The notes under the pieces: model-generated
What the model was told of the DNA's origin: nothing
The model's input: the letters and a program-made list of their open reading frames with translations, nothing else
Databases searched by the model: none
Assembly: GCF_003010495.1 (NCBI RefSeq)
Contig: NZ_CP027570.1
Span: 870,001 to 902,000 of the forward strand
Source: Megasphaera elsdenii DSM 20460
GTDB lineage: Bacteria > Bacillota > Negativicutes > Veillonellales > Megasphaeraceae
Length of the DNA: 32,000 nt
Direction: 5' to 3'
Part shown: positions 3,001-18,186 of the stretch, in pieces
Layout: each line of letters opens with the position of its first letter
How positions within the stretch are numbered: the stretch's first letter is position 1
Position numbers and translations under genes: made by a program

Positions 3001-6000
3001 TTCTTGCCAATGGTATTGGTCATGTTATCTGTCGTAGTGTTGGTGATGTTCTTGGCGTTGTTGCTCAAGGTTTCCGAAGCAATGTTAGCAATGTTCTTGG
3101 CATCGTTTGTAATACTTCCATTCTTAGCTGTATTAGTGATATTTTCCGAAGCTGTATTTTCGATATTTTTAGCAGTGTTGGAAATAGTACCGTTATTAGC
3201 TGTATTGGAAATATTTCCATTGGTCGATGTATTGGTAATGTTATTTGCTGCTTCATTGGAAATCGTATCCGATGCTTTATTGACCAATTTCTGAGCTTCG
3301 TTAGTGATAGTACCCTGTTTTGCCGTATTGGTAATATCCGTCGTAGTCTGGGCGGAAGAAGTCGTGTTGGTTCCATCGGTGACTTCGCTGGTGATGTTAT
3401 CTACCTTCTGATCTACCTTGGAGAATACCGTATCAGACGAATTAATCTGATTCAGGATTTCATTGACACGCTGCTGGAACGTCGAGGTCTTACCTTCCTT
3501 ATCTTGGAGGACACTACTGGATTTCGTTGCACTCTGAGTTGCTGTATTGGTGTTACTATCTTTATCCTTCAGTGTGCTCTGTGACTGAGTAGATGTCTGT
3601 GTAGACAGGTTGCTGTTCTTTTCAGAATCGATAACCTTGGACGTTACATCGTTGCCTTCTACAGTCAAAGTACTCTTGTTCCAGTTACCATCTGCATCGG
3701 TAGATTTCGCCCATGTAGAAGTGCCGTTTTCATCATAATCAATGGCACTTTCTTTTTCACTGCCATCTTTCGTGCTGGTAGCTTTCTTATAGGACGTGAT
3801 TTCACCGGCTGCCACTTTCGTGCTGGCCGTTACGTTGTTGTCACCTACAATACCATTCTTGGTCAGGTCGATTTCATCCACATTCAGCTTGCCATTGACC
3901 GTTAAGTCACCGCCGATGGTGGCATTGCCGCTGGTGGTGATGGTTTCAGCGCTCAGGTTCTTCACACCGGTGAGGTTGCCATTCTGCATAGTTGCCGTGC
4001 CATCAGAGATGCTCTTACCCTGGATAGCGCCGCCGGCGGTCAGGTCACCGGTAATGGTGGCGCTGCCTGCTGTGAGAGCGCCCTGGATGGAAGCGCTGGC
4101 TCCCGTAATGGCGCCGCCTGCGTGGATATCACCCACTGCAGAGATGTTGCCTGTGGAAGTTACGGTGCCGCCGGTAATGGTACCGCTGGTATTGATGTTG
4201 CCATTGGTAATGGTAGCAATCCCATCGGTCAGGGTCTTGCCGGTTACTGTTCCGTTGCTCATGGAAGCACCCTTACCGTCGGTTACTGTTTCGCCGGTGA
4301 TAGTTGCCTTAGAAGTGACATTTCCATTTTCATCCACGGTGAAAGCCCCGTTGGCCCCTTTGATCTTGCCGTCAGCGCTCATAGCTGCTTTGGCTTCGCT
4401 ATAGGTATCGCCGCCGGTGTAGACACCGTCTTTATCCACCACCGTGCTGTTGGTGCCAACCTTGATTCCATTTTCGTTCATGGTGATCTGGTTGTCCTTG
4501 CCCTTGTTCAGGATCATTTCATTGGCATCGGTCTTGGAAGTGGTCACCATACCGTCATCAGCCACCGTCGTGGTGTTCTTTTGCAGCACGTTGTCTTCGC
4601 TCAGGCTCAGGCCGCTGTTCACGGCTTCCGCCAGTTTTTTATCAGCCCCGATGCGGGCTTCTTTTTCGGCGGCGTCGGCTGCGTTCAGAGCCGCAAACCC
4701 ATTGGCCATATTGGTATTGATGGTATTGAACCCATCCACCATATTCTGGTTGACCTGTTCAATGACCTTGTCTTGGGCTGCATCGGCACCGATCCGGGCT
4801 GACGTTTCCTTAGCAAGGGCCGCATCGAGATTAGTTACGTTTTCACCGATGGTTTTGGCCGCTTTCACAATGGCCCCATCCTGTACGGTGGCATCGGTCT
4901 TGCTCACATAATTGTCAGAAGTCTGTTTTTCCAGATATTCTTTCACATTGGTGATACGTTCGTTCAGAGCTGTATCGCCAGCTTCACGAGCAGCCGTTTC
5001 CGTATTGAGGTCACTTTGCAACTGATTCGTCGTTTCGTGAATCGCATTTGCTTCGTTTGTAATGCGTTCGTTCAGTTCATTATCGGCCGCCTCACGAGCA
5101 GTCGTTTCCGTATTCAGGTCATCCTGCAATTTATTCGTGGTTTCGTGGATTGCATTGGCTTCGTTCGTAATCCGTTCATTCAGTTCATTGTCTTTAGCTT
5201 CACGAGCCGCAGCTTCGTTATTAATATTGGTCTGCAGCTGTTTATCCGCATTTTCCAGATTGGTAACCGAATATTTGCGCTTCCGTGCTTCTTCCTCAAT
5301 GGCATCGGCATTGGCTTTGGCTTGCGTATCGAGGGCAACGATATTTTCGCCTACCGTATTGCCGGCCGTTACATAATTCCCGCTGATAAGGGTATTATCC
5401 ACGACGCCCTGCATGCCGACGACTTTATTTTTAGCGGTAATATTGGTCTGGGAAACGATTTCGTTACCGTTGATGGTAGACTGGGAAGTCAAGGTACCTT
5501 TGACCAGAGCATTGCCATCCACGTTCAGGTTGCCACGGCTGTTCAGGCTGCCCGCATTGACGGCACCGCCTACATTGGCGTTGTGGCCTACGCTGATAGA
5601 ATTGGTCACCCTGGCAGAGCCGGCAGTGAGTTTATCGCTTACATCGACAGAAGCGGCGCTGATATTGCCCGTAGCGTCGATGCTGCCCGTGGAAATGGCA
5701 TTGCCTTTAATGGTGGTAGAGGACGAAGAAGTTCCATCATTATAAGTAAAGGTTGTCCCGGTCGATTTAGCAGTAGCAACCTGGGAATATTCTCCTGCAG
5801 TATCTCCCGCAGTATCAATAATCTGTCCATTTGAAGATGTACTGGAAATGTCATTAGTTGCCTTGCTCACAATCGCTCCAGTTCTGGCGCGATATTCTGT
5901 ATAAGCTGTACCGCCATCATTGGCAAGTCCTGCCGCCTCATTATTGACTACACCAATCTGTGCTCCGCTTCCATTGACCTGAAGAGTTGCGCTATACTGA

Positions 6001-6491
6001 TTGCCCTTATATGTCATGGATTCATTAATAGAAGTACTATTAGCATCTGCTACTCTGGTAAGAGAGGCTGTCTTAGTTTCAACCGCGGAAGTTCTGGAAT
6101 CCAGTTTGGTATCCGCCGCTTCACGGGCTGCTGCTTCATTATCGATATTGGTCTGCAGCTGTTCATCCGCAGTTTTCAGATCCGAAATATCACTGGTATT
6201 TTTACTTACAGTCGTATTTTTGGCATATTCACCTAGCTGAATGTCTACGCCATCTTTCGTATAAACCGTCTGCTCTGTACCAGACACATCTTTGACAGTA
6301 ACATAATCATCAGCAGCTGATACATATCCCGCTCCGAGGGGGCTAATCAATAAAGCTGCTACGGCTGCCAGTACAGCCCGTTTCGCCATACGGCCCGTGC
6401 TCGTGGATTTGCTCGTTCCTTTGGCTAATTCTGAAGCTACGACGTAGCAATTTTTTGTTTTACTCCATATGACTTTAAATATCCTATTCAT
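1..6491 (-). CDS. Trimeric autotransporter adhesin (YadA-like, type Vc); 5' end complete, 3' end beyond window (2163 codons in window)
   Basis: The minus frame runs from ATG 6491 (SD aaagga 8-13 nt upstream) to the window edge with no stop. The track reports no minus ORF in this frame, as expected for an open-ended ORF. The N-terminus MNRIFKVIWSKTKNCYVVASELAKG is the extended signal peptide region typical of type V autotransporters. NSTDAVNGAQLYQTNERV (DAVNGAQLY = 72..98), followed by coiled-coil sequence, is the YadA-type stalk motif that precedes the anchor. The passenger is T/N/G/S-rich and repetitive. All + strand ORFs listed for 214..6240 are antisense shadows. Confidence 0.9.
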   Translation of the reverse strand, partial: MNRIFKVIWSKTKNCYVVASELAKGTSKSTSTGRMAKRAVLAAVAALLISPLGAGYVSAADDYVTVKDVSGTEQTVYTKDGVDIQLGEYAKNTTVSKNTSDISDLKTADEQLQTNIDNEAAAREAADTKLDSRTSAVETKTASLTRVADANSTSINESMTYKGNQYSATLQVNGSGAQIGVVNNEAAGLANDGGTAYTEYRARTGAIVSKATNDISSTSSNGQIIDTAGDTAGEYSQVATAKSTGTTFTYNDGTSSSSTTIKGNAISTGSIDATGNISAASVDVSDKLTAGSARVTNSISVGHNANVGGAVNAGSLNSRGNLNVDGNALVKGTLTSQSTINGNEIVSQTNITAKNKVVGMQGVVDNTLISGNYVTAGNTVGENIVALDTQAKANADAIEEEARKRKYSVTNLENADKQLQTNINNEAAAREAKDNELNERITNEANAIHETTNKLQDDLNTETTAREAADNELNERITNEANAIHETTNQLQSDLNTETAAREAGDTALNERITNVKEYLEKQTSDNYVSKTDATVQDGAIVKAAKTIGENVTNLDAALAKETSARIGADAAQDKVIEQVNQNMVDGFNTINTNMANGFAALNAADAAEKEARIGADKKLAEAVNSGLSLSEDNVLQKNTTTVADDGMVTTSKTDANEMILNKGKDNQITMNENGIKVGTNSTVVDKDGVYTGGDTYSEAKAAMSADGKIKGANGAFTVDENGNVTSKATITGETVTDGKGASMSNGTVTGKTLTDGIATITNGNINTSGTITGGTVTSTGNISAVGDIHAGGAITGASASIQGALTAGSATITGDLTAGGAIQGKSISDGTATMQNGNLTGVKNLSAETITTSGNATIGGDLTVNGKLNVDEIDLTKNGIVGDNNVTASTKVAAGEITSYKKATSTKDGSEKESAIDYDENGTSTWAKSTDADGNWNKSTLTVEGNDVTSKVIDSEKNSNLSTQTSTQSQSTLKDKDSNTNTATQSATKSSSVLQDKEGKTSTFQQRVNEILNQINSSDTVFSKVDQKVDNITSEVTDGTNTTSSAQTTTDITNTAKQGTITNEAQKLVNKASDTISNEAANNITNTSTNGNISNTANNGTISNTAKNIENTASENITNTAKNGSITNDAKNIANIASETLSNNAKNITNTTTDNMTNTIGKNLTTTVGGDMSTEVTGNQSNTVKGTLTETVTGKVTEDYKSDLSTKVGGNETHYVAGSQTNTVSGDRTVNVKGTETENFNAQVTSIKTNQRTSVGGNQTNIVAGNQQNTVSGSKTETVKGAVSETYGSQATTVDGDQSTHVGGNQENVVTGNQTNTISGSKTETVKGAVSETYGSQTTKVNGDQSMTVTGKQTNSITGDQVNTIGGSQTTTVTGDVTEDYKANLSTTVGGNQTTTVTGDSSLTAENITNEAKNKITNKAIDVETDATSSIVQKVTNDAGSNTSTQLSYQTKEEMSQADGKTASYLRGAAEEKSQLIDGDKKTTIDTVAGQTNTNITDGTNTSNSLQKADQVASSVTDGTNTTVVNQNAGSLASSITDGTKVNNSSNTVDKSEQLIKASDTQYSATSKTATKMEDALVNGSTILDVVKDSGTGTISAAVTDGTNTTGSTMTASGITNTTSGDISNSAANISNTTTGNMTNTVGGNLIDTIMGTSTTTVTGKVTEDYKSDLSTKVGGDETHAVTGNQTTTVSGNRTVNVKGTETENFNALETNVKTDQKTSVGGNQTTIVTGNQTNNVSGSKTETVKGSVTEKYGSQATTVDGDQSTNIGGNQTTVVAKDQTNTVSGNKTETVKGAVNETYGSQTTKVNGDQSTTVTGKQTNSITGDQVNTIGGSQTTTVTGDSSLSAKNITNKASEKITSQIGDGSAVKSEMTADGITNTAEGGTIYNKSKDILNEASGDILNFADGEIGNVATKITNITGDNTVTSDTNGTTFENKAHNTAIKEGTVTKTTISGNTIETGQAKMDYAEVMKDLGVHGNATVDQKLTVKGDSDLQGNANVGKNLTVNGTSDLKGNVTMESNATVQKDLTVNGTTTTNKLVVNNGATIKGGTTTDTLHVTSTSTFDGTATFKDIVTMEKDLSVGGNATVAGSMTASSYKVGDKTYISESGINANNQKVVNVAAGDLSANSTDAVNGAQLYQTNERVTGVENKVNKLDSRVDKV
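965..1520 (-). repeat. Intragenic long direct repeat, copy A (pairs with 2363..2918)
   Basis: It aligns with 2363..2918 at a constant offset of 1398 nt (466 codons, in frame) at both ends. I see only 2 mismatches in the first ~115 nt; the remainder is roughly 75-85% identical by eye. Confidence 0.8.
2363..2918 (-). repeat. Intragenic long direct repeat, copy B
   Basis: See copy A. The shared string cgccggtcaccgtggtagtctggctgccgccgatggtgttgacctggtcaccggtaatgctattggtctgcttgcc occurs at 965 and 2363. Confidence 0.8.
4953..5276 (-). repeat. Tandem 108-nt (36-aa) coiled-coil stalk repeats, about 3 units
   Basis: Units start at 4953, 5061 and 5169 (..acgttcgttcag.. / ..gcgttcgttcagttcatt.. / ..ccgttcattcagttcatt..). 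They encode NELNERITNEANAIHETTNKLQxDLNTETxAREA-type heptad sequence. A related partial unit lies at about 6105..6190. Confidence 0.75.
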
Positions 6492-6584
6492 ATTTTCGCA
6501 TCCTTTCTGCATTAAAATTCGTCCTCGACCCTATTTTTGCGTACAAAAATAGAACCTGATGAAATACGAACTTTTTTTGATTTT

Positions 6585-6932
6585 TTATGCATCTTTGCTG
6601 AAGATGAATTTGAAATAATCTTCCTGGAACTGGCGATATTTCCGTTTGGCCAGAGGAATTTTGTGTCCCTTCACTTCGATGTATTCGCTCTTTATGATGT
6701 GAATTGCGGACTGGTTGACGATGTAACCTTTTCCGGGAGAGACGAACTGGCCGGGGGCGAGGGTTTCAAAGGTCTGCAGCATGGCCAGCAGGGACTGGCG
6801 CGTTTCCAGCATGGAGCCATCTACGGTATGGACTTGTTGGACGTGGCCGTTGCTCTCGACGAAGAGGATATGATTGATTTCCTCGACCTGGATGCCGCCA
6901 CCGACAAGGCGAAAGATGACTTTTTTCCGCAT
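6585..6932 (-). CDS. Stand-alone LytTR-domain DNA-binding protein (115 aa)
   Basis: The sequence MRKKVIFRLVGGGIQVEEINHILFVESNGHVQQVHTVDG...GYIVNQSAIHII...KIPLAKRKYRQF follows the LytTR fold pattern, although the usual HRS is replaced by GKG. The start was moved to ATG 6932 because of the SD aggagg at 6939..6944. There is no receiver domain. The gene is co-directional with the adhesin and lies 93 bp upstream of it. Confidence 0.7.
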   Translation of the reverse strand: MRKKVIFRLVGGGIQVEEINHILFVESNGHVQQVHTVDGSMLETRQSLLAMLQTFETLAPGQFVSPGKGYIVNQSAIHIIKSEYIEVKGHKIPLAKRKYRQFQEDYFKFIFSKDA

Positions 6933-7121
6933 AGGATACCTCCTTTCTGTTCGTGATAGGGAAGCACTTGTATTGGCAATCTTATTATAGCGTAATTTTC
7001 TGATTAAATATTCAACGCGAACTGAAATGCACATTTTTTGGCGTAAATTGATAAATGTAACTTATAGAATTATAAAACAGAAAAGTATATAGTTATCTCC
7101 GATGAGAGCGAGAAAGGCCAT

Positions 7122-7150
7122 TGCATCGTGTTCCTAAATATGGTATGATA
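7122..7150 (+). promoter_or_regulatory. Sigma-70-type promoter with extended -10
   Basis: TTGCAT (7122..7127), a 17-nt spacer, then TGgTATGAT. Confidence 0.6.
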
Positions 7151-7313
7151 CGGCCGAGGCAAAAGATAGCATCACCTGGTGTGAGTTATACTTTTTTTTC
7201 GGATATTTCTAAAGATGGTTTTGTCATCTGCTTGGATCTGATTCAGACCGAGACAGAAAGGATTAGGTGGGATTGTTACAGATTTCACCTGCACTATGGA
7301 TATTTGTCGCTTA

Positions 7314-7349
7314 GACACCTTTCGGTCTGTGCCGGAAGGTGTTTTTTTG
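7314..7349 (+). terminator. Intrinsic terminator/attenuator in the leader of the BASS-panC operon
   Basis: An 11-bp stem, acacctttcgg (7314..7324) pairing with ccggaaggtgt (7331..7341), encloses the 6-nt loop tctgtg and is followed by TTTTTTTGTTCTTTT. There is no upstream + strand gene to terminate. The RBS and start of the transporter follow about 25 nt later. Confidence 0.7.
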
Positions 7350-7386
7350 TTCTTTTGCCCCAGATTCCAATAGGGAGGTTTTTTTG

Positions 7387-8361
7387 TTGAAAAAGTGTTG
7401 TGATTTTCTGGTAAACAACATGGCCATTTTCGTCGTCCTCATCGGTATCGTCGGCGCCGTATGGCCGCAGACCCTGCAGTGGGTCAAGCCTTATGTCGGC
7501 TGGCTCCTGGGTATCGTCATGTTCGGCATGGGCATGACCTTGACCGTTCAGGATTTCAAGACCGTCTTCAAACGGCCGTGGGAAGTCCTCATCGGCGTCG
7601 TCGCCCAGTTCATCATCATGCCCTTCGTGGCCTGGGCCCTGGTCCGTCTCTTTACCCTGCCGCCGGAACTGGCTATTGGCGTCATCCTCGTCGGGACCTG
7701 CCCGGGCGGGACGGCATCGAATGTCATTTCCTACCTGGCTAAGGGCGATGTCGCCCTGTCCGTATCGATGACCATGTCGACGACGCTCCTGGCGCCCATT
7801 GTGACGCCGACCCTGACCTGGTTCCTGGCAGGCGCCTGGATCCACGTTTCCTTCGTGTCCATGATGATTTCCATTGCGGAAATGGTCCTGGTACCGGTCC
7901 TGCTCGGCCTGGCAGCTCATCATTTCTTTGCCAGCCGCGTCGAAAAGGTCCTGCCGGCGATGCCCGTCATTTCCGTCGTCACCATCGTCATCCTCGTCGG
8001 CTGCGTCGTATCCCTCAGCGCATCGCGCCTGTTCGACGTTGGCCTGCTCATGGCAGCCATCGTCATCTTGCACAACGTCTTTGGCCTGGCCCTGGGCTAT
8101 GGTATGGCCAAATTGTTCCGCCTCGATTCGCGTAAATCCCGGACCGTGGCCATCGAAGTGGGGATGCAAAATTCCGGTATGGCTGCCTCCCTGGCTGTCT
8201 TATATTTCAATCCGGCAGCGGCTATCCCCGGCGCTATCTTCAGCGTATGGCACAATATTTCCGGGTCCATCGTGGCCAATTTCTTCTCGCGCCGCGATGA
8301 AAAAGCCGAAGAAAAGGCCCGCGCCCTGTCTGTCGATAAATCGAGTGTTCCTACTCATTAA
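7387..8361 (+). CDS. Bile acid:sodium symporter (BASS/SBF) family transporter, possibly PanS-like
   Basis: The translated sequence has BASS hallmarks (GMGMTL, CPGGTASNV, EVGMQNSG). The start is probably TTG 7384 or 7387, downstream of GGGAGG 7373..7378. ATG 7420 is the alternative. Confidence 0.85.
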   Translation: MKKCCDFLVNNMAIFVVLIGIVGAVWPQTLQWVKPYVGWLLGIVMFGMGMTLTVQDFKTVFKRPWEVLIGVVAQFIIMPFVAWALVRLFTLPPELAIGVILVGTCPGGTASNVISYLAKGDVALSVSMTMSTTLLAPIVTPTLTWFLAGAWIHVSFVSMMISIAEMVLVPVLLGLAAHHFFASRVEKVLPAMPVISVVTIVILVGCVVSLSASRLFDVGLLMAAIVILHNVFGLALGYGMAKLFRLDSRKSRTVAIEVGMQNSGMAASLAVLYFNPAAAIPGAIFSVWHNISGSIVANFFSRRDEKAEEKARALSVDKSSVPTH

Positions 8362-8388
8362 TTTATATTCCAAAGGAGTCTTAATATC

Positions 8389-9234
8389 ATGAAAATTTTC
8401 CGTACTGTCAAAGAAATGCAGGCATTTGCTGGTGAACAGAAAAAAGCTGGTAAGGTCATCGGTCTGGTCCCGACCATGGGGGCTCTCCACGAAGGTCATC
8501 TGACCTTGATGCGGGCTGCTAAAGCCAAATGCGACGTCGTCATCGCTTCGGTCTTCGTCAACCCGACCCAGTTCGGCCCGAACGAAGATTATGACGCTTA
8601 TCCGCGCCGCTTCGATGAAGACTGCCAGAAGTTGGAAAGCGTCGGTGTCGATGCCGTCTTCCATCCGGAACCGTCGGAAATGTATCCGGAAGGTTATTGC
8701 ACGTATGTCAACGTCGACGGCGACATTACCCATAAACTCTGCGGGGCTCAGCGTCCTATCCATTTCCGCGGCGTCGCTACGGTCGTTACGAAATTGATGA
8801 ACATCACCCGTGCCGATGAAGCTTTCTTCGGTCAGAAAGATGCTCAGCAGGTCGTCGTCGTCCGCCGTTTCGTCAGCGACCTCAACCTCCCGGTCCACAT
8901 CAATATGGTCCCCATCGTCCGTGAAGAAAGCGGTCTGGCCCGGAGCTCGCGCAATGCTTACCTTTCGCCGGAAGAAAAACAGGCAGCCTTGGTTTTGTCC
9001 CGTAGCCTGCGCAAAGCTAAAGCAGCTTATGAAGGCGGCGAAAAAGACGTAGAAACGCTGAAATCCATCGTCACCAAGGAAATCCAGGCTGAACCGATGG
9101 CTTCTATCGATTACGTTGATCTCTTCTCTTTCCCGGCTTTGAAACCGATCCAGACTGTCGACCAGGAAAGCCTCTTGGCCATTGCCGTCCGTATCGGCAA
9201 GACGCGCCTCATCGATAATGTCATCTTAGGCTAA
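8389..9234 (+). CDS. panC: Pantoate--beta-alanine ligase
   Basis: The sequence PTMGALHEGHLTLM...FVNPTQFGPNEDY...RPIHFRGVATVVTKL...FGQKDAQQ is classic PanC. An SD aaaggag lies upstream. Confidence 0.95.
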   Translation: MKIFRTVKEMQAFAGEQKKAGKVIGLVPTMGALHEGHLTLMRAAKAKCDVVIASVFVNPTQFGPNEDYDAYPRRFDEDCQKLESVGVDAVFHPEPSEMYPEGYCTYVNVDGDITHKLCGAQRPIHFRGVATVVTKLMNITRADEAFFGQKDAQQVVVVRRFVSDLNLPVHINMVPIVREESGLARSSRNAYLSPEEKQAALVLSRSLRKAKAAYEGGEKDVETLKSIVTKEIQAEPMASIDYVDLFSFPALKPIQTVDQESLLAIAVRIGKTRLIDNVILG

Positions 9235-9240
9235 GGAAAT

Positions 9241-9295
9241 CTTCACATTTTCTTCACATTTCCTCCACATCTTTTTCGCACGTCTCTGGTATAGT
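9241..9295 (+). promoter_or_regulatory. Three phased 11-bp direct repeats plus an extended -10; candidate response-regulator-activated promoter
   Basis: The repeats are cttcacatttt (9241), cttcacatttc (9252) and ctccacatctt (9263). TGgTATAGT lies at 9287..9295. There is no recognisable -35; the third repeat occupies that position. Confidence 0.55.
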
Positions 9296-9333
9296 AAAAG
9301 CATAAACAGAGGGGTACTACAAAGGAGGTTTTC

Positions 9334-9633
9334 ATGATGAAGAAAAAAATCCTAGCCGGATTGGCGGCACTCGTCGTAATTGCCGGTTTTTCCGCCTTTG
9401 CAGCCACACCAGCTGCTTTAGAAGGTTCATCGTCAGGGACTTACGGCTCAGGTTATACATGTTATGACAACGGTAACGGGTATTGCCGGGGGCCGCAGGC
9501 CTGCTATGATGACCACGATAACTGCTATACTGGAAATGGTTATTGCCAGGGACCGCGCCGCGGCTGCCGGGCCGATGGCCAGCGCGGCTGTCAGGGCCGT
9601 CAAGATTGCCCTGCCTATAGCGAACAACAGTAA
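9334..9633 (+). CDS. Secreted cysteine-rich mini-protein (99 aa, 8 Cys in the mature part), uncharacterised
   Basis: SD aaggagg precedes the start. The Sec signal peptide is MMKKKILAGLAALVVIAGFSAFA. There is an internal duplication, CYDNGNGYCRGPQAC / CYTGNGYCQGPRRGC. Confidence 0.7.
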   Translation: MMKKKILAGLAALVVIAGFSAFAATPAALEGSSSGTYGSGYTCYDNGNGYCRGPQACYDDHDNCYTGNGYCQGPRRGCRADGQRGCQGRQDCPAYSEQQ

Positions 9634-9661
9634 GCCGTTCTAATCAAAGGGGGAAAACAAT

Positions 9662-10279
9662 ATGGTAATGACTCACTACATGGAACTCTTATCGCTCCAT
9701 GAACCTTGGTTCTTGATTCTCTTCATGCTGGTACCGATGGTATTGGCTGAAACGATTTTAGCGTCTGGTGCTTTTTCCTTGCTCTACAAGGACAGCCGCA
9801 GTGAAAAATGGGACAGCCTGAGCCACGTCTGCGGACTCATCTTAGGCGTCTTCTTCATTGTAGCTACGGTATACATCGTCACATCCTATGTGCCGACTAT
9901 CCAGTGGCGCGGCCCGATTGATTATATTTCTATTTGGGCTTATGTCTTAGGCGTCATCCCAGCCGTCCTCATCCTCTTGCAGGAATTGGGCATTATCTTT
10001 AAGAGCTCCGATTCGACGGCCAAGATCAAGAAACACATCGTCCTCATGATTCTCTTCGTCCTGTTCACGCACTTAGCCATGGTCTTCGGCATGGCTGACC
10101 CACAGCTCGCAGGTTACGTTCCGCCGAAACAGAACAACATGCAGATGCAGATGAACGGCAATATGCCCATGGACCACAGTCAGATGGACCATAGCCAGAT
10201 GAACCATGACCAAATGAACGGTCAAATGAATGGCCAGATGAATAACAATAACGGCCAGATGGACCACAGTAAGATGTAA
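9662..10279 (+). CDS. 4-TM membrane protein with a C-terminal Met/His/Gln-rich tail, uncharacterised
   Basis: Four hydrophobic segments are present. The last 46 aa (10139..10276) contain 12 Met and 4 His (MQMQMNGNMPMDHSQMDHSQMNHDQM...). SD aggggga lies upstream, and the gene starts 28 bp after the Cys-rich gene. Confidence 0.7.
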   Translation: MVMTHYMELLSLHEPWFLILFMLVPMVLAETILASGAFSLLYKDSRSEKWDSLSHVCGLILGVFFIVATVYIVTSYVPTIQWRGPIDYISIWAYVLGVIPAVLILLQELGIIFKSSDSTAKIKKHIVLMILFVLFTHLAMVFGMADPQLAGYVPPKQNNMQMQMNGNMPMDHSQMDHSQMNHDQMNGQMNGQMNNNNGQMDHSKM

Positions 10280-10280
10280 A

Positions 10281-10466
10281 ATTCGTGGCTAGTGGTTCGG
10301 TGGTTCGTGGCTTCGTAGGGGCCGTCCCAGAGGGCGGGCCGCCTCTCCTGTTAGGAGAGGTGGCTCGAAGGGCCGGAGAGGTTTAACCTCTCAGTCAGCT
10401 ATAGCTGACAGCTCCCCTATAAGGGGAGCCATTATACGAGCCACGAACCACTATAACAACGAACCA
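10281..10466. repeat. GC-core palindromic intergenic element, copy A (string of hairpins)
   Basis: The left arm ttcgtggctagtggttcggtggttcgtggcttcgtagggg pairs with the right arm tacgagccacgaaccactataacaacgaacca. Internal hairpins include ctctcctgttaggagag, gagaggtttaacctctc, gtcagctatagctgac and gctcccctataaggggagc. Confidence 0.7.
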
Positions 10467-12364
10467 ATCGAGTAGGAGGGATTTCTGAGTAGAAATCCCG
10501 ACCTCTCACACCACCGTGCGTACCGTTCGGTACACGGCGGTTTCCTAGTTTTCGCATACTTGCTTGTAATAGCTCGTCATGGTTATGTAGCCAAGGCGGG
10601 CTATTTCTTTATTCGTAAGAACTGAGTTCAGCATTGCCGCTGCTCGCCACGGACCTTTTCGGCAGTTAGCCATTTCCAACACTACCCACTTGGGCGCGCC
10701 GTATTGGCTTATCATCCGGTGTTTCGTCCGTACCTTCTTCCATTGTTTCCAGTATATGGTTCGTATTTTGCGTCGAATCCATCTGTCAATTTGAATTAGC
10801 AGTTCCTTCATATTCGCTAGTTTAAAGTAATTCACCCATCCCTTTATGAATCGTTTCAATAGAAGGGCTCTCACTTCGTTTCCTTTTCCATTGCTTCGTT
10901 TCAATATAAACCGCAAACGGTCTTTCATCTTAGTAATGGATTTCGGATGCACCCGGAGTCGGCATTTTCCATTCTTTCGGTAGAAGCCATATCCCAGATA
11001 TTTAACATAGCGGATGTGGGCTACGTGCGTCTTATTTCGATTCACCTTGAGAAATAATTTCTTCTCAATATATCGAGTGATGCTTTCCAAGGTCCTTTCG
11101 GCACTTCTTCTGCTTTTGCAGAGTATCATGCAGTCATCTGCATAGCGGACAAATTTATGTCCGCGCCGTTCCAGCTCCTTATCCAGCTCATTCAGCATGA
11201 TGTTACTCAAGAGCGGACTCAATGGCCCTCCTTGGGGAACCCCCTGTTCACTTCGTTCGAACATCCCATGCCGGATAACACCAGCATGGAGATATTGGTG
11301 TATCAGCGAGATGACCCGGCCGTCTTTTACGCTCCTTGACAGAACTTCTATCAATTTGCTTTGGCAGACATTGTCGAAAAATTTCTCCAAGTCCATGTCT
11401 ACGACGTAGACATAGCCCTCATCTGCATAGGCCTGGCATTGTTTCAACGCATCGTGGGCGCCCCGTTTGGGACGGAACCCGAAACTGCTATCTGAAAACT
11501 GTGGCTCGTAGATAGGCACAAGAACCTGCGTAATCGCCTGTTGTATCATGCGGTCTACGACCGTAGGGATTCCTAATTTCCGGAATTTCCCTTTTTCCTC
11601 TTTGGGTATTTCAACCCGACGGACTGGCTGGGGCTTATATTTCCCATTCCGTATTTGCTGAAGGAGGTCCAGGCGATGTTCCCGCAGGTAGGGTAGAAGT
11701 TCATCTACACTCATCCTGTCGACCCCGCCGGTTCCTCGATTAGACTTTACCTTCTTATAGGCACCATTTAAGTTGTCTCGTGATAAAATCTGCTTCAACA
11801 GACTGTCCGCTGGCAAGCTTGCAATGATGTCGTTGTGTTCAGCAATCCTCGCATGGGCAGACGCTTCCACATATCCCGGTTGTTCCGCAACCTCTTTTTG
11901 TGGACAGCCTTCTTGATGAAGTTTTCTGTCTTTCATTCCATGATTGGTTACTTTCATTAACTAACATCTCCTAGGATTCGGCCCTTTCCTCATGGTCTAT
12001 AGCCCATAAGGTACTATGGCCTCGGCTGACTCCTCATGATAAATCTTATTTCAACCATGATGTCCAATCTATATGGCACCATCATGTCCATGAGGCCTCC
12101 CCGGGTAAGAACGCACTCTTTCTCTCCATGTGTCTGCCACATCTACTATTCATGGTTCCGTGTAGCTATGGGACTTCAACCTGTTAGGCGGCCTTATCCC
12201 CATGACTAGCCTTATGTGATTTCTGTTCGTCAGACCAGAGATTTGCCTCGACCTTCCTTCAGATTCCATCTCACGATGGACACCCTTGGTTCTGGCTATA
12301 GCCTTCCCGCTACCGGGCGGCTTAGGGACTTTCACCCATTAGAGTGCGCCCATGCCGGGCGCAC
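10467..12364 (-). mobile_element. Group II intron, bacterial class C (IIC), apparently full length (~1.9 kb)
   Basis: The 5' end is GUGCGCC (complement of 12364 downward), immediately after terminator hairpin+UUUUAG. The 5' ribozyme portion is compact, about 407 nt (11958..12364). A domain V-like hairpin ccgccgtgtaccGAACggtacgcacggtgg lies at 10511..10543. A domain VI hairpin (10472..10506) has a bulged A 7 nt from the ..CGAU 3' end. The encoded RT/maturase has no endonuclease domain. Confidence 0.8.
10545..11957 (-). CDS. Group II intron reverse transcriptase/maturase (no En domain)
   Basis: RT motifs are present: RKLGIPTVVDRMIQQA, FGFRPKRGAHDA, QGGPLSPLLSNI and the YADD box VRYADDCMILC. 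The maturase X region contains GWVNYF. The ORF ends directly before domain V. Confidence 0.92.
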   Translation of the reverse strand: MKVTNHGMKDRKLHQEGCPQKEVAEQPGYVEASAHARIAEHNDIIASLPADSLLKQILSRDNLNGAYKKVKSNRGTGGVDRMSVDELLPYLREHRLDLLQQIRNGKYKPQPVRRVEIPKEEKGKFRKLGIPTVVDRMIQQAITQVLVPIYEPQFSDSSFGFRPKRGAHDALKQCQAYADEGYVYVVDMDLEKFFDNVCQSKLIEVLSRSVKDGRVISLIHQYLHAGVIRHGMFERSEQGVPQGGPLSPLLSNIMLNELDKELERRGHKFVRYADDCMILCKSRRSAERTLESITRYIEKKLFLKVNRNKTHVAHIRYVKYLGYGFYRKNGKCRLRVHPKSITKMKDRLRFILKRSNGKGNEVRALLLKRFIKGWVNYFKLANMKELLIQIDRWIRRKIRTIYWKQWKKVRTKHRMISQYGAPKWVVLEMANCRKGPWRAAAMLNSVLTNKEIARLGYITMTSYYKQVCEN

Positions 12365-12366
12365 CT

Positions 12367-12402
12367 AAAAGGGCTTGTCGCACGTGCGACAAGCCCTTTT
12401 TT
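12367..12402. terminator. Bidirectional intrinsic terminator; 5' exon/target of the IIC intron
   Basis: AAAA, then the perfect 26-nt palindrome gggcttgtcgcacgtgcgacaagccc, then TTTTTT. Confidence 0.8.
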
Positions 12403-12436
12403 CATGCTATAATTGATATAAAAAGGGGGAAACACG

Positions 12437-12721
12437 ATGGATTTAGCGCAGCCGATTTTAGAGGGCATCATCGTTCTGGCTAAACAATACGATATTCAAA
12501 AGGTCATTCTTTTTGGCTCCCGTGCCCGTGGCGATAATTGGGAACGCAGCGATATTGACCTGGCTGTCTGCGGTGGAGATGTCACGCGGTTTTCTCTTGA
12601 TGTCGATGAGGTCATCCCGACACTGCTCATGTTCGATGTCGTCGATTTAGATGAACCGGTCCAGCCTGAACTGCGAGCCGCTATCCAACGGGAAGGAGTC
12701 GTTATATATGAAAAAGTATGA
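12437..12721 (+). CDS. Minimal nucleotidyltransferase (MNT/MntA-like antitoxin, HI0073-type)
   Basis: The sequence LFGSRARGDNWERSDIDLAV matches the GSxxxG...DxD NTase motif. The 94-aa protein overlaps the downstream HEPN gene by 14 nt. An extended -10 TGcTATAAT lies at 12405..12413. Confidence 0.8.
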   Translation: MDLAQPILEGIIVLAKQYDIQKVILFGSRARGDNWERSDIDLAVCGGDVTRFSLDVDEVIPTLLMFDVVDLDEPVQPELRAAIQREGVVIYEKV

Positions 12722-13097
12722 GAATTTCTGCAAAGCCTTGAATAACCTCAAAGAAATACAAAAAGAAATACCACCTTATTCGACGGTCGTCCAAACGGGA
12801 ATGGTTTCTCTTTATGAAATCTGTTTTGAACAGGCTTGGAAAGCCATGAAAGAAGTATTGGAAAATAATGGCTATAGCCAGCATAAGATAGGGTCATCGC
12901 GGACAATTATCAAAATGGCTTATCAGGCAAATCTGATTGACGATGAGGATTGCTGGCTGGAGGCCTTGCGGGACCGGAACAATGTAGTCAATTCTTATAA
13001 TGAAGAAATTGCCAATAATATCATTAAAGACAGCAAAGAGAAGTACATTACCATGTTTGAAGGGCTGCAAAAGGAAATAGAAAAAAATTGGTTGTGA
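12708..13097 (+). CDS. HEPN-domain protein (HI0074 / nucleotidyltransferase substrate-binding family, HepT-like) with an altered Rx4H motif
   Basis: The start was moved to ATG 12708 (MKKYENFCKAL...), which fits the family length of about 130 aa. The motif region reads RDRNNVVNSYNEE, where the family normally has RNxxxHxY. Confidence 0.7.
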   Translation: MKKYENFCKALNNLKEIQKEIPPYSTVVQTGMVSLYEICFEQAWKAMKEVLENNGYSQHKIGSSRTIIKMAYQANLIDDEDCWLEALRDRNNVVNSYNEEIANNIIKDSKEKYITMFEGLQKEIEKNWL

Positions 13098-13119
13098 AGA
13101 TGATAGGGAGGTGGATTTT

Positions 13120-13827
13120 TTGCGAACGAATTCGATTTTAATCGTCGATGATGATGAAAAGCTTTGTGCTTTGTTGAAATCTTATTTTGAGCAGGAACAG
13201 TTCATCGTCTATGTGGCTCACGATGGCATGACGGCGTTGCATACGCTGCGCAACCAGAAACCGCAGATTATGCTCCTCGATTTGATGATGCCCGGCATGG
13301 ATGGCTTCGAGGTCTGCCGCCGTATCCGTCAGTTCAGCGATATTCCCATTATCTTCTTGTCGGCCAAGGACGATGAAACGGACCGCCTAGTCGGTCTTAA
13401 TATGGGCGGCGACGATTATGTGACCAAGCCTTTTCACGTCAAAGAAGTTATTGCCCGCGTTTACAGCCTGCTGCGGCGGACCCGCGGCGAAGTACTGCAG
13501 AAGACGACGTCGTATACCATACGGGATTTGACCATCGACAAGGAAAAGTTTACTGTCTTGAAAGGAAATCAGCCGGTGCCCCTGACGCCGACGGAGTTCA
13601 ATCTCCTCGAAGTCTTGGCTTCGGCTCCGGACAGGGTGTTCAGCCGCATGCAGCTCATGGACAAAGTACAGGGCGGCTATGGCTTTGAAGGTTATGAACG
13701 GACTATCGACACGCATATCCGCAACCTGCGCAAGAAGCTGGAAGCCGACCCGGCCCATCCGACGTATATCCTGACCGTATACGGCATCGGTTATAAATTC
13801 GACGGAGGGAATCATGAAGAAAGCTGA
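13120..13827 (+). CDS. OmpR/PhoB-family response regulator
   Basis: The receiver domain shows ILIVDDDE...LLDLMMPGMDG...KPF, and the winged-helix output shows LTPTEFNLLEVL...GIGYKF. The start is probably TTG 13120, 8 nt after AGGGAGG. The track's GTG 13111 abuts the SD. Confidence 0.9.
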   Translation: MRTNSILIVDDDEKLCALLKSYFEQEQFIVYVAHDGMTALHTLRNQKPQIMLLDLMMPGMDGFEVCRRIRQFSDIPIIFLSAKDDETDRLVGLNMGGDDYVTKPFHVKEVIARVYSLLRRTRGEVLQKTTSYTIRDLTIDKEKFTVLKGNQPVPLTPTEFNLLEVLASAPDRVFSRMQLMDKVQGGYGFEGYERTIDTHIRNLRKKLEADPAHPTYILTVYGIGYKFDGGNHEES

Positions 13828-14927
13828 CAGCATCGTCATCCGCCTGACCGGGATGGTCTTTATCCTCATCTTCCTGACCATCGCCATTTTGCTCATCTTG
13901 GTCAATAACCAGATGGACAACCATTTTTCCCAGTATTTAACGAATATGTCCCAGATGATGGGCAATGGACATCAAGGCATGGGCATGATGCACGGCATGA
14001 GGCATGGGCCGGCGGAAATTACCTATATCTCGGCCGTCCACCGGTCGTTGCTCTGGGTCGGCCTGGTCATGCTGGCCGTCAGCGTCACCATCAGTTATTT
14101 TATCGTCCGGGAAATCATGCGTCCCTTGTCAGCTCTGACCGACGCCGTGCAAAAAGTCAAGGCCGGTACGTATGGCCAGACGGTTCCCGTCGAACGCCGT
14201 GATGAAGTCGGGACCCTGACCGAGACTTTCAACGACATGTCCCAGGAACTGGCGAAAAACGATAAGATGCGGCGCCGTCTCTTTGCCAACATCGCTCACG
14301 AACTGCGGACGCCCCTGGCCATCTTGCAGGGCAATCTGGAAGGGATGATCGACGATGTTATCCCGACGGATAAGAAGGTCCTCTTGTCCATGGAAGATGA
14401 AACCTTGCGCATGGGCCGCCTCATCCAGGACTTGCGGGACTTGTCACTGGCGGAAATTAATGAGCTGACGCTCCATAAAGCACCGCATGATATCAACGTT
14501 CTCCTGGAACGGGCCGTCAGTATGCTCCAGCCTTTATGTGACGAAAAATCCCTGGCCGTCCATTTGGACTTGGCCAGGGATTTGCCGAAGGTATCTATCG
14601 ATGTGGACCGTATCAATCAGGTCATTTATAATCTGCTCAACAACGCCATCCGCTATATCGAAGCGGGCTGTACGATTACCGTTTCGACCTTAGCCGTCAC
14701 CGTGAAGGGACAGCCTTATGTGCAGGTTCAGATTGCCGATACGGGCAGCGGCATTGCGCCGGAAGATTTACAGCATATCTTCCAGTACTTTTACCGCAGC
14801 GAAAAATCGCGGAACCGCAAGAGCGGCGGCAGTGGTATCGGCCTGGCTCTGGCTCAGCAGTTCGTCCGCAGTCATGGCGGCAGGATATGGGCGGACAGTG
14901 AAGTCGGCAGGGGGACGACGTTTACCT

Positions 14928-17786
<2,859 letters not shown>

Positions 17787-17790
17787 TCCT

Positions 17791-18111
17791 TTATTTCATG
17801 AGTTTTTGTAAAGTGCAGACGAGTTCATCGACGACTTCGTCTTTGCCTTCACGGATGTCGTGGACGACGCAGGACTTGATGTGCTGGCCCAGGAGCTCCT
17901 TATTGAAAGAATTCAAGGCCGACTGGATGGCACTGACCTGAGTCAGGATATCAATACAATAGCGATCGTCTTCGACCATTTTTTTCACGCCCCGTACTTG
18001 GCCTTCGATGCGGTTCAGACGGGAAATGAGTGATTTATACTCTTTGCCCTCTTTATTGCGATACTTATGCTTTTCCGTATCGCAGCAAGGACAGACTTTC
18101 TTTTCGCCCAT
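17791..18111 (-). CDS. csoR: CsoR-family copper-sensing transcriptional repressor
   Basis: The family pattern LxRLxRIEGQxRGxxxM and the C..H..C ligand set (RYCIDILTQ ... HIKSC) are present. The gene lies immediately upstream of copA with a 4-bp gap. It has an N-terminal CPCC extension. Confidence 0.9.
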   Translation of the reverse strand: MGEKKVCPCCDTEKHKYRNKEGKEYKSLISRLNRIEGQVRGVKKMVEDDRYCIDILTQVSAIQSALNSFNKELLGQHIKSCVVHDIREGKDEVVDELVCTLQKLMK

Positions 18112-18135: not shown

Positions 18136-18186
18136 TACCCCTATGGGGTACATGGTTATAATATACCTACAAGGGGTATATGTCAA
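18136..18186 (-). promoter_or_regulatory. csoR-copA promoter with two CsoR-type operators
   Basis: The operators are TACCCC-TAT-GGGGTA (18136..18150) and TATACC-tacaagg-GGTATA (18162..18180). The second resembles the B. subtilis copZA operator as I remember it (approximately ATACCCTACGGGGGTAT). On the minus strand the -35 is TTGACA (18181..18186) and the -10 is a TATAAC/TTATAA-like hexamer around 18156..18162. Confidence 0.75.

Follow-up and report, generated by a model that had tools for sequence, protein, structure and literature searches.

DUF6803, a probable copper/silver-handling membrane protein family, and its putative two-component regulon in Megasphaera elsdenii and other Negativicutes

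Here, we identify a two-gene operon in Megasphaera elsdenii DSM 20460 that very probably belongs to the copper/silver stress response of this bacterium. The operon lies in a 32,000-nucleotide stretch of the genome (contig NZ_CP027570.1, positions 870,001 to 902,000; this whole stretch is referred to as the window) and encodes a small secreted peptide rich in Cys (gene 1) and a membrane protein with four transmembrane (TM) helices and a Met/His-rich tail (gene 2), which is a member of the family DUF6803. Based on sequence comparisons, we suggest that DUF6803 is probably a previously undescribed copper-handling protein of the cell envelope. That the products act by the specific mechanism of binding metal or handing it on at the outer face of the membrane, a claim that takes in the uncertainty about gene 1, we hold with moderate confidence. 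Copper and silver are antimicrobials and feed additives, copper is used by host immune cells, and Megasphaera is a major genus of the gut and rumen that is exposed to dietary copper. The analysis offers a testable function for an uncharacterised multi-phylum family with almost 3,000 sequence clusters, and it defines a putative copper/silver regulon and its DNA box for the Negativicutes, which are poorly studied diderm Firmicutes.

Independent lines of comparative evidence tie DUF6803 to copper and silver: the Met/His-rich tails found throughout the family; a promoter box shared with Cus-type genes; a CsoR operator; a context of DUF2946-like, DUF411 and HMA proteins; and fusions to DUF305. An earlier reading of the window from its sequence alone (the sequence-only reading) had proposed an undescribed module for buffering or sensing copper or silver in the envelope. 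The comparative evidence supports an undescribed envelope module of this kind, and a full-text literature search found no paper mentioning DUF6803.

First, gene 2 matches Pfam PF20617/DUF6803 over residues 1-157, which align to positions 1-160 of the 162 in the profile (E=4e-58, 196.6 bits versus a cut-off of 27); NCBIfam has no model for DUF6803. The sequence-only reading had found no family for either product, which stands for gene 1 but not for gene 2. Its description of the gene 2 protein agrees with our results: an AlphaFold2 model built with 38 homologues has four long helices, with a predicted local distance difference test score (pLDDT) >90 over residues 1-155, followed by a disordered tail, and the last 46 residues include 12 Met and 4 His. 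The DNA encoding the tail consists of imperfect 15-nt and 12-nt tandem repeats that give the MDHSQ and MNGQ units, respectively. An exhaustive HMMER search of 1.84 billion representative sequences returned 238 DUF6803 clusters at E≤1e-3, and a profile search of a larger collection returned 2,968 clusters at 90% identity. The family ranges over Negativicutes, Clostridia, Proteobacteria, Actinobacteria, Saccharibacteria and methanogenic archaea. Its near-invariant core comprises M3, Y6, M7, M22, P25, E30, D87, H137, A139, M140, G143, M144 and P147; gene 2 carries M3, Y6, M7, H137, A139, M140, G143, M144 and P147, in columns that are at least 90% conserved among 38 diverse members.

The tails cannot be aligned, and their composition is nevertheless shared. 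In the 73 representatives in which the end of helix 4 could be located, and to which the counts are restricted, the pooled tails contain 11.3% Met, 10.1% His and 0.8% Cys, i.e., about five times the typical protein frequencies for Met/His and nearly no Cys. They take the form of MDHSxM repeats, HHHHH ends or MPxM runs, and the few tails without Met and His look frameshifted. Extracytoplasmic Cu(I) sites, as in CusF, CusB, CusA, CopC and PcoE, are marked by Met and His ligands and by a scarcity of Cys. The MDHSQM and MDHSKM units are almost identical to the Met-rich octapeptide repeats of Pseudomonas syringae CopA and CopB. A text search of the literature for MDHS-type repeat strings found no paper, and the tail peptide of gene 2 had no match among PDB sequences.

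Second, DUF6803 is genetically linked to a two-component system. We scanned one genome per species with a 14-sequence alignment, confirmed 563 matches and fetched 80 loci; neighbors were compared by all-against-all clustering and targeted scans, and the window proteins were searched for by tblastn. Orthologs of the window's response regulator (RR) and histidine kinase (HK), with 45-61% identity, directly adjoin DUF6803 in most Negativicutes loci outside Megasphaera, including those of Selenomonas, Pelosinus, Sporomusa, Propionispira, Acidaminococcus and Anaerovibrio, in the gene order DUF6803-RR-HK or RR-HK-DUF6803. In the neighbor clustering, no genes other than those of the HK (24 of 42 non-redundant groups) and the RR recur beside DUF6803; copA is found in four and csoR in three of the 42 groups. 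In the genome scan, gene 1 was detected in Megasphaera loci only. The conserved unit is therefore DUF6803 plus RR plus HK, and not gene 1 plus gene 2. The co-occurrence that the sequence-only reading had named as a check holds for DUF6803 with the RR/HK genes in most Negativicutes loci, is seen for copA in four groups, and fails for gene 1 outside Megasphaera.

The sequence-only reading had also pointed to a two-component system with a Met/His-bearing sensor loop and to csoR-copA near the operon, and all of these are present. The extracytoplasmic loop of the window HK (residues 31-76; nt 13904-14041) contains 8 Met and 5 His. In the HK orthologs, the loop is always short, about 35-50 residues; its flanks are conserved (QM..F..YL and FL.SVH.SL.WVG), and its middle is variable and Met-rich, often with His. 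A literature search on copper two-component systems in Megasphaera yielded nothing relevant.

Third, a putative RR box stands ahead of gene 1 in place of a −35 element and is followed by a putative −10 hexamer (Table 1); it is the sole match to the box within the window. Other Negativicutes, as well as Clostridium tanneri, also have two to four copies of TTCAYA at 11-bp spacing ahead of DUF6803, just before a −10 element (TATAAT). Across 1.08 Mb of loci, TTCAYA-N5-TTCAYA occurs 60 times versus 3.6 times expected from composition-preserving shuffles (maximum 8), and ≤450 nt upstream of DUF6803 there are 35 hits in 25 loci versus none in any shuffle. Most of the remaining hits lie in these same loci. 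Some of them stand ahead of OEP (TolC-like) genes that are followed by CusB-type genes, as assigned by Pfam. The pump encoded downstream of the boxed OEP and CusB genes in locus L055 matches Escherichia coli CusA (E=1.7e-224) better than the zinc pump ZneA, and it retains both the Met triad that forms the Cu(I) site of CusA and the AIGxxxDAAxVxxEN signature. Further genes preceded by the box encode Met-rich secreted proteins, a small SHOCT-domain membrane protein and a DUF2933 protein, and where DUF6803 stands last, the box is also found ahead of the RR-HK operon itself. Activators of the OmpR/PhoB family classically bind to direct repeats of 11-bp period that take the place of the −35 element. 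We infer that the adjacent RR would activate DUF6803 together with a Cus-type exporter, and that the system may be a functional analog of CusRS or CopRS.

The small membrane protein (62-80 residues) recurs under the box in four loci (L026 10663-10905, L028 10604-10846, L041 3500-3742 and L062 5589-5777). The L026 copy matches Pfam SHOCT, and the protein is a putative further member of the copper/silver regulon.

Fourth, DUF6803 is linked to copper regulators other than this two-component system. In M. micronuciformis (L009), no two-component system lies next to DUF6803, and its promoter, TTTACA-ATTATACCCCACCGGGG-TATAAT, contains a CsoR-type operator (TACCCCACCGGGGTA, position 7950) between the −35 and −10 elements. 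This operator matches the one in the csoR-copA promoter of the same strain at 14 of 15 positions. Elsewhere in the 1.2 Mb of fetched sequence, the CsoR motif occurs in csoR promoters only, including that of the window at 18136; the gene 1-2 promoter of the window contains no CsoR operator (TACCC-N4-5-GGGTA). Because CsoR leaves the DNA upon binding Cu(I), DUF6803 in M. micronuciformis would be made under copper excess. DUF6803 is preceded in four proteobacterial contexts, those of Rhodospirillum rubrum, Mesosutterella and two metagenomic contigs, by an exported protein of 110-123 residues. This protein combines a C-H motif and a CC motif with a (Y/F)(R/K)PP motif at its C-terminus, and three of the four proteins match Pfam DUF2946 weakly (E=0.012-0.12). 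DUF2946 proteins, such as CruR and CutF, are copper-sensing upstream open reading frames (ORFs) found at the head of operons for copper homeostasis (PMC9426467; PMC9973294; 10.1101/072470). As their Pfam matches stay below threshold, the proteobacterial proteins are a lead and not demonstrated DUF2946 members; their loci are candidate further cases in which copper control would run through nascent exported peptides like CruR and CutF. DUF411 (CopG), a family that is part of enterobacterial copper/silver islands (PMC4824010), is encoded downstream of DUF6803 in two loci, both among these four. A small HMA-domain gene lies downstream of DUF6803 in one of the DUF411 loci and upstream of it in a third locus outside the four, and in C. 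tanneri, genes for HMA-DsbD, ArsR and a P1B-ATPase are found near DUF6803. These contexts suggest that DUF6803 may have been placed, independently, under a two-component system, under the CsoR repressor and possibly under nascent-peptide sensors of the CruR/CutF type.

This diversity of regulators bears on whether DUF6803 might instead be an accessory co-sensor of the HK that signals via transmembrane contacts in a three-component system. DUF6803 stands tightly beside the RR/HK genes in Negativicutes, sometimes as RR-HK-DUF6803 with a 35-nt gap, and the kinase loop is very short, as would be expected if the kinase had such a partner. However, DUF6803 exists without this two-component system under other copper regulators, and the box stands ahead of its own gene, as expected for an effector; we consider a co-sensor distinctly unlikely. 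Because it is found without the two-component system (in Campylobacter concisus, M. micronuciformis, Proteobacteria, Saccharibacteria and archaea), and in monoderms and archaea, DUF6803 would act as an effector at the cytoplasmic membrane that needs neither the kinase nor an outer-membrane pump as its partner. Of the two roles offered by the sequence-only reading, buffering or sensing, an effector role is accordingly favored over that of a dedicated sensor component.

Fifth, fusions and the predicted topology place the DUF6803 tail outside the cytoplasm. Among 38 members, the number of Lys plus Arg residues per segment is 0.16 for the N-terminus, 2.8 for loop 1 and 2.9 for loop 3, and the tail is acidic. 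According to the positive-inside rule, the N-terminus, loop 2 and the tail would be outside and loops 1 and 3 inside, i.e., the predicted topology is N-out/C-out. Actinobacterial members have an extra Arg-rich segment and helix (a signal-anchor) before the N-terminus and archaeal members an added Met/His-rich N-terminal extension, both in agreement with N-out. In four independent clusters (P0158, P0304, P0311 and P0383), the tail is replaced by DUF305, in agreement with C-out; this is the domain of CopM, which binds Cu(I) in the periplasm and outside the cell (PMC4335983). Pfam detects no DUF305 domain in the gene 2 protein. In the model, the conserved Met, His and Asp (and Glu) residues would lie in the outer halves of the helix bundle.

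Three metagenomic DUF6803 proteins of 317-320 residues (P0302, P0314 and P0375) have about 130 extra C-terminal residues. The extension of P0302 ends in CVACHAVYR with a cytochrome c'-like CxxCH; the match is weak (E=0.19) and, with regard to topology, at most suggestive.

A four-helix bundle with conserved His and Met might also be a small membrane redox protein that binds haem by His/Met ligation, e.g., a cupric reductase or an electron path to periplasmic cytochromes. Among the Foldseek hits of the gene 2 model, di-haem four-helix bundles and cytochrome oxidase subunit III rank highest, cytochrome b reductase 1 is matched weakly by sequence, and c-type cytochrome genes or domains adjoin or are fused to some members, with c-type cytochrome genes adjoining DUF6803 in L084 and L086. 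All of these matches are non-significant (E≥0.2, TM-score ≤0.43) and are to generic helix bundles: the best Foldseek hit against the PDB has E=0.2, and a profile search of PDB sequences for related solved structures returned nothing below E=0.4. Moreover, only one His is conserved, and the Megasphaera loci have no haem-biosynthesis or redox context. A redox function is, therefore, highly improbable.

Several lineages have loci with features of their own. Locus L028 of Pelosinus (5282-13740) encodes three paralogous kinases with Met-rich loops and several box-preceded genes, including a second OEP gene, and looks like an expansion of the system. In Saccharibacteria, a membrane-anchored protein of 115-121 residues is encoded directly upstream of DUF6803 (L065 487-834, L070 3730-4077 and L067 7590-7955); it belongs to no Pfam family, contains HxENHN...C.H..C in two of three cases and may be another lineage-specific partner. 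In L011 and 26 other loci of C. concisus, DUF6803 has a long Met/His tail, the genes of a 4Fe-4S protein and a TorD-like chaperone lie on one side of it and a gene named rmuC-like from its sequence on the other, selA/selB-like genes are near, and the upstream region contains a possible TCTCAMA-N4 repeat. Finally, DUF6803 is at least 80% identical between Sporomusaceae (Pelosinus, Sporomusa and Propionispora) and metagenome-assembled genomes of Acidaminococcales/Acidaminococcaceae (L026, L028, L030, L033, L037 and L055 versus L034 and L038), which may be due to a horizontally transferred module or to contigs placed in the wrong genome bins.

Genes 1 and 2 both exist as ORFs on the plus strand where the sequence-only reading had placed them. 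Each is preceded by a Shine-Dalgarno sequence, the spacer between them is 28 nt long and contains no terminator, and we propose that they form one transcription unit. The gene 1 precursor begins with a signal peptide, MMKKKILAGLAALVVIAGFSAFA, which precedes the mature N-terminal A, and has the signal-peptidase site AFA↓A as read from the sequence. Its eight Cys residues (precursor residues 43, 51, 57, 64, 71, 78, 86 and 92) are evenly spaced, about every 7 residues with 5 to 7 other residues between them, and include a duplicated module, CY..GYCxGPxxxC, in CYDNGNGYCRGPQAC (43-57) and CYTGNGYCQGPRRGC (64-78). ORF, cleavage site and Cys positions all agree with the mature peptide of 76 residues, the eight Cys and the duplicated module described previously. 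The ratio of nonsynonymous to synonymous substitution rates (dN/dS) is 0.17-0.21 among orthologs of the M. elsdenii clade and, therefore, gene 1 is a real coding gene under purifying selection; in the M. massiliensis clade, the ratio is 0.01-0.05.

Gene 1 has a narrow distribution and a variable sequence. It matches no family in Pfam, NCBIfam or PDB sequences, where it gave sub-threshold noise only (YjbE, lactococcin 972), and its relatives amount to only 12 protein clusters in 5.8 billion sequences. It is absent from the M. hexanoica and M. micronuciformis loci. Strain variants with 5 or 7 Cys have lost whole modules, and C57S is found in one assembly; the version of the M. massiliensis clade has 71 residues and only 2 Cys (GYYCHGNGYY...GYCHGPYMGHHGYQR). 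What is kept across versions is the signal peptide, a composition rich in Gly, Tyr, Asn and Asp, and the motif GYC[RQH]GP, and not the eight Cys. The idea of the eight-Cys peptide and the membrane protein as a unit is, therefore, replaced by the linkage of DUF6803 with RR and HK. An AlphaFold2 model of gene 1 from seven sequences is unstructured (pLDDT 39), and the odd Cys numbers in natural variants argue weakly against an obligatory all-disulfide fold.

Two known types of Cys-rich copper peptide were considered for gene 1 and rejected. A metallothionein or Cys-cluster copper storage protein (Csp) is contradicted by the lack of CxC and CxxC and by the model, which has no fold and thus shows no four-helix bundle lined with Cys as in Csp. 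A copper-sensing leader peptide of the CruR/CutF type was ruled out on motifs, Pfam and RNA folding. Gene 1 has the export signal of these peptides; however, it contains neither their CxxC or CxxxC (PMC9426467, PMC9973294) nor a C-terminal RAPP or proline-rich arrest-like motif about 45 residues past the Cys motif, and its C-terminus, ...GRQDCPAYSEQQ, is without PP. Pfam PF11162 gives no match even at E≤1. There is also neither a hairpin masking the Shine-Dalgarno sequence of gene 2, as in CutF, nor a long Rho-dependent spacer, as in CruR, and the fold of 9575-9690 is no better than that of shuffles (z=+1.13). The view of gene 1 that fits best is that of a soluble accessory specific to its lineage, which would bind metal as a peptide in the periplasm. 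Small proteins of different kinds are found in other lineages, i.e., Met-rich secreted ones in the Sporomusa/Pelosinus regulon and Cys/His membrane-anchored ones in Saccharibacteria.

A number of observations weigh against the copper-handling module as we describe it. The role of gene 1 is the weakest part of the explanation: the gene is missing from most DUF6803-bearing genomes, and its Cys count is 8, 7, 5 or 2. The HK scores 156.8 bits against NCBIfam TIGR01386 (cztS_silS_copS; cut-off 292.55) and the RR 153.5 bits against TIGR01387 (cztR_silR_copR; cut-off 279.2), and the best NCBIfam matches of both are BaeSR/MtrA-like. We rejected the HK as a canonical member of the CusS/CopS subfamily on these scores; RR and HK are a separate lineage, which would be functionally analogous to heavy-metal two-component systems. 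The 27 loci of C. concisus contain neither a copper gene, as searched for with copper-protein queries, nor the box, and the two neighbors of DUF6803 that were scanned there are a 4Fe-4S protein and a nitrate-reductase-delta-like (TorD-like) chaperone. His-rich tails could also serve Ni, Zn or Co. Finally, the conservation of E30, D87, H137 and M140-x3-M144 exceeds what a passive membrane anchor needs and hints at transport or catalysis.

Several of these points are also what would be expected if the module answered to another metal (Ni, Zn or Co) or to general envelope stress, and if the Met/His residues were incidental low complexity: RR and HK do not reach the cut-offs of the heavy-metal subfamily and have best scores that are BaeSR-like, some tails are purely His-rich, a CDF gene lies beside DUF6803 in R. 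rubrum, and the C. concisus context is uninformative. These points are opposed by the CsoR operator, the CusA-type pump with its Cu(I) Met triad, the DUF2946-like upstream proteins, the DUF411 and HMA neighbors, the DUF305 fusions, and the enrichment of Met with avoidance of Cys across 73 diverged tails. We regard a module for something other than copper or silver as very unlikely.

The intramembrane conservation would fit a metal transporter, in which the tail would collect Cu(I) and an oligomer would conduct it along the outer Met/His site and the mid-membrane E30, following the logic of Ctr1, or in which DUF6803 would import metal for detoxification in the manner of CopCD and MerT. M140-x3-M144 at the outer end of TM4, M22, H137, D87 and E30 are near-invariant across phyla, beyond the need of an anchor. 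Some sources label DUF6803 proteins as permease, a label that carries no evidence. However, neither the PDB profile search nor Foldseek revealed sequence or fold similarity to any transporter, and the protein has four helices only. De-repression via CsoR and co-regulation with CusCBA-type genes would mean that DUF6803 is made in copper excess, which is odd for import, although CopCD and MerT are precedents. We find a transporter doubtful. Less likely than not, too, is a broader proposal in which DUF6803 is a widely distributed class of prokaryotic copper/silver membrane protein whose Ctr1-like arm would feed Cu(I) into the bundle site for transport or for hand-off to the export machinery, so that the protein would do more than soak up metal. 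If it is true that the membrane domain binds or moves Cu(I), this would be a new way of copper handling at the outer face of the cytoplasmic membrane.

We, therefore, favor DUF6803 as a membrane-bound copper-handling effector and suggest the following model. The HK would sense excess Cu(I) or Ag(I) at the outer face of the cytoplasmic membrane via its short Met/His loop and phosphorylate the OmpR-type RR, which, as the conserved cis-element suggests, would bind the TTCACA repeats at 9242-9270 and switch on the operon. The disordered Met/His tail of DUF6803 and its N-terminal MTHYM would then capture Cu(I) or Ag(I) and pass the metal to the outer half of the bundle, where M22, D87, H137, M140 and M144 would form the conserved Met/His/Asp site. 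In this way, DUF6803 might either keep the metal buffered at the surface of the membrane or deliver it to further components of the envelope. The gene 1 peptide, fast-evolving and probably unstructured, may assist as a soluble metal-binding accessory with a role like that of SilE, PcoE, CusF or CopM.

Table 1. Coordinates of the operon, its putative control elements and neighboring features in the window
Feature	Position	Strand	Remarks
Putative RR box	9242-9270	+	TTCACAT/TTCACAT/TCCACAT, three direct repeats at 11-bp spacing; in place of −35 element
Putative −10 hexamer	9290-9295	+	TATAGT, 20 nt past last repeat; read from the sequence
Gene 1	9334-9633	+	99-aa precursor, 76-aa mature peptide; rich in Cys, Tyr, Gly, Asn
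Gene 2	9662-10279	+	205 aa; 4 TM helices and Met/His tail
Gene 2, DUF6803 core	9662-10138	+	N-terminal MTHYM, four TM helices, M22, P25, E30, D87, H137-x-A-M140-x-x-G-M144-x-x-P147
Gene 2, C-terminal tail and stop codon	10139-10279	+	46 aa; MDHSQ and MNGQ repeats; predicted disordered, extracytoplasmic
Group II intron	10467-12366	-	Reverse transcriptase/maturase ORF 10545-11957; Pfam RVT_1, GIIM; Rfam group-II D1-D4 at 11981-12280
MNT/HEPN-type nucleotidyltransferase toxin-antitoxin pair	12437-13097	+	Pfam Polbeta/NTP_transf_2, NTase_sub_bind
OmpR/PhoB-family RR	13111-13827	+	Assigned by Pfam; presumed activator at box
HK	13814-14962	+	2 TM, HAMP, HisKA, HATPase
copA, Cu(I)-exporting P1B-type ATPase	14928-17786	-	Three HMA domains; NCBIfam TIGR01511, 576.6 bits versus cut-off 397
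csoR, copper-sensing repressor	17791-18111	-	Pfam Trns_repr_metal, E=3e-32; best NCBIfam match RicR, below its cut-off
CsoR-type operator	18136-18150		TACCCCTATGGGGTA; in csoR-copA promoter

In the window, gene 2 is parted from the RR gene by two insertions, the group II intron and the toxin-antitoxin pair (Table 1). Three other Megasphaera assemblies (L001, L002 and L007) do not have the intron, which lies outside the module; the toxin-antitoxin pair is present in L002 and L007 and truncated in L001. Right after the stop codon of gene 2 and beside the intron insertion point, 10280-10466 contains GC-rich inverted repeats (REP-like palindromes), which may be terminators or the intron target. 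Upstream of gene 1, an Rfam 'pan' motif (7163-7260, plus strand; 54 bits versus a gathering score of 36) precedes the gene for an SBF-family transporter and panC (7339-8361 and 8389-9234), which suggests that a regulated transporter operon related to pantothenate lies directly upstream of gene 1. A very large gene on the minus strand (1-6494) runs off the start of the window, with at least 2,166 stop-free codons. Its start, MNRIFKVIWSKTKNCYVVASELAKG, is an extended signal peptide of the ESPR type, and 108-bp tandem repeats (4957-5207) as well as YadA-like motifs are present; the gene probably encodes a trimeric-autotransporter adhesin; the overlapping plus-strand ORFs across 1-6494 are antisense artefacts.

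Among the known families tested, DUF6803 is the only one to which the operon products belong; known systems are compared here by architecture. Like CusRS-CusCFBA, SilRS-SilE and PcoRS-PcoE, in which two-component systems sense periplasmic Cu(I)/Ag(I) and disordered Met/His proteins bind it in the periplasm, the regulon proposed here includes an RND pump of the CusA type and small secreted Met-rich proteins. By contrast with cus, sil and pco, RR and HK score below the heavy-metal cut-offs, and the main target is a membrane protein without a counterpart there. The periplasmic domain of CusS is about 150 residues long, compared to the loop of about 45 residues in the window HK, and, unlike in cus, cusCBA was not seen in the M. 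elsdenii window. Ctr1 has a Met/His-rich extracellular segment and MxxxM at the outer end of a transmembrane helix; gene 2 resembles it in its Met/His arm and in M140-x3-M144. However, gene 2 has four helices instead of three, its Met/His segment is C-terminal instead of N-terminal, it would be made in copper excess instead of deficiency, and neither Pfam nor the PDB gives homology to the Ctr family. The Met-rich repeats of P. syringae CopA and CopB (Asp-His-Ser-Gln/Lys-Met-Gln-Gly-Met) are found in a multicopper oxidase and an outer-membrane protein and not in a four-helix inner-membrane protein. With DUF2946 proteins, CruR and CutF, gene 1 shares the position of a small exported Cys protein upstream of a predicted copper gene, and not the defining motifs.

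The closest known architecture is, by analogy, that of copMRS and copBAC in Synechocystis sp. PCC 6803. There, CopM, a copper-binding envelope protein, is encoded directly upstream of an RR and an HK, which also control an operon of the resistance-nodulation-division type for heavy-metal efflux (HME-RND), and the extracytoplasmic binding of Cu(I) by CopM is by itself enough for copper resistance (PMC4335983). Similarly, DUF6803, for which copper binding is predicted here, is an envelope protein encoded together with a two-component system, with an HME-RND pump that would be under the same control. Unlike CopM, gene 2 lacks DUF305 and has no sequence similarity to it, and it is an integral four-helix protein with conserved intramembrane residues, whereas CopM is a soluble four-helix protein of the periplasm. 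Nevertheless, the DUF6803-DUF305 fusions physically link DUF6803 with CopM.

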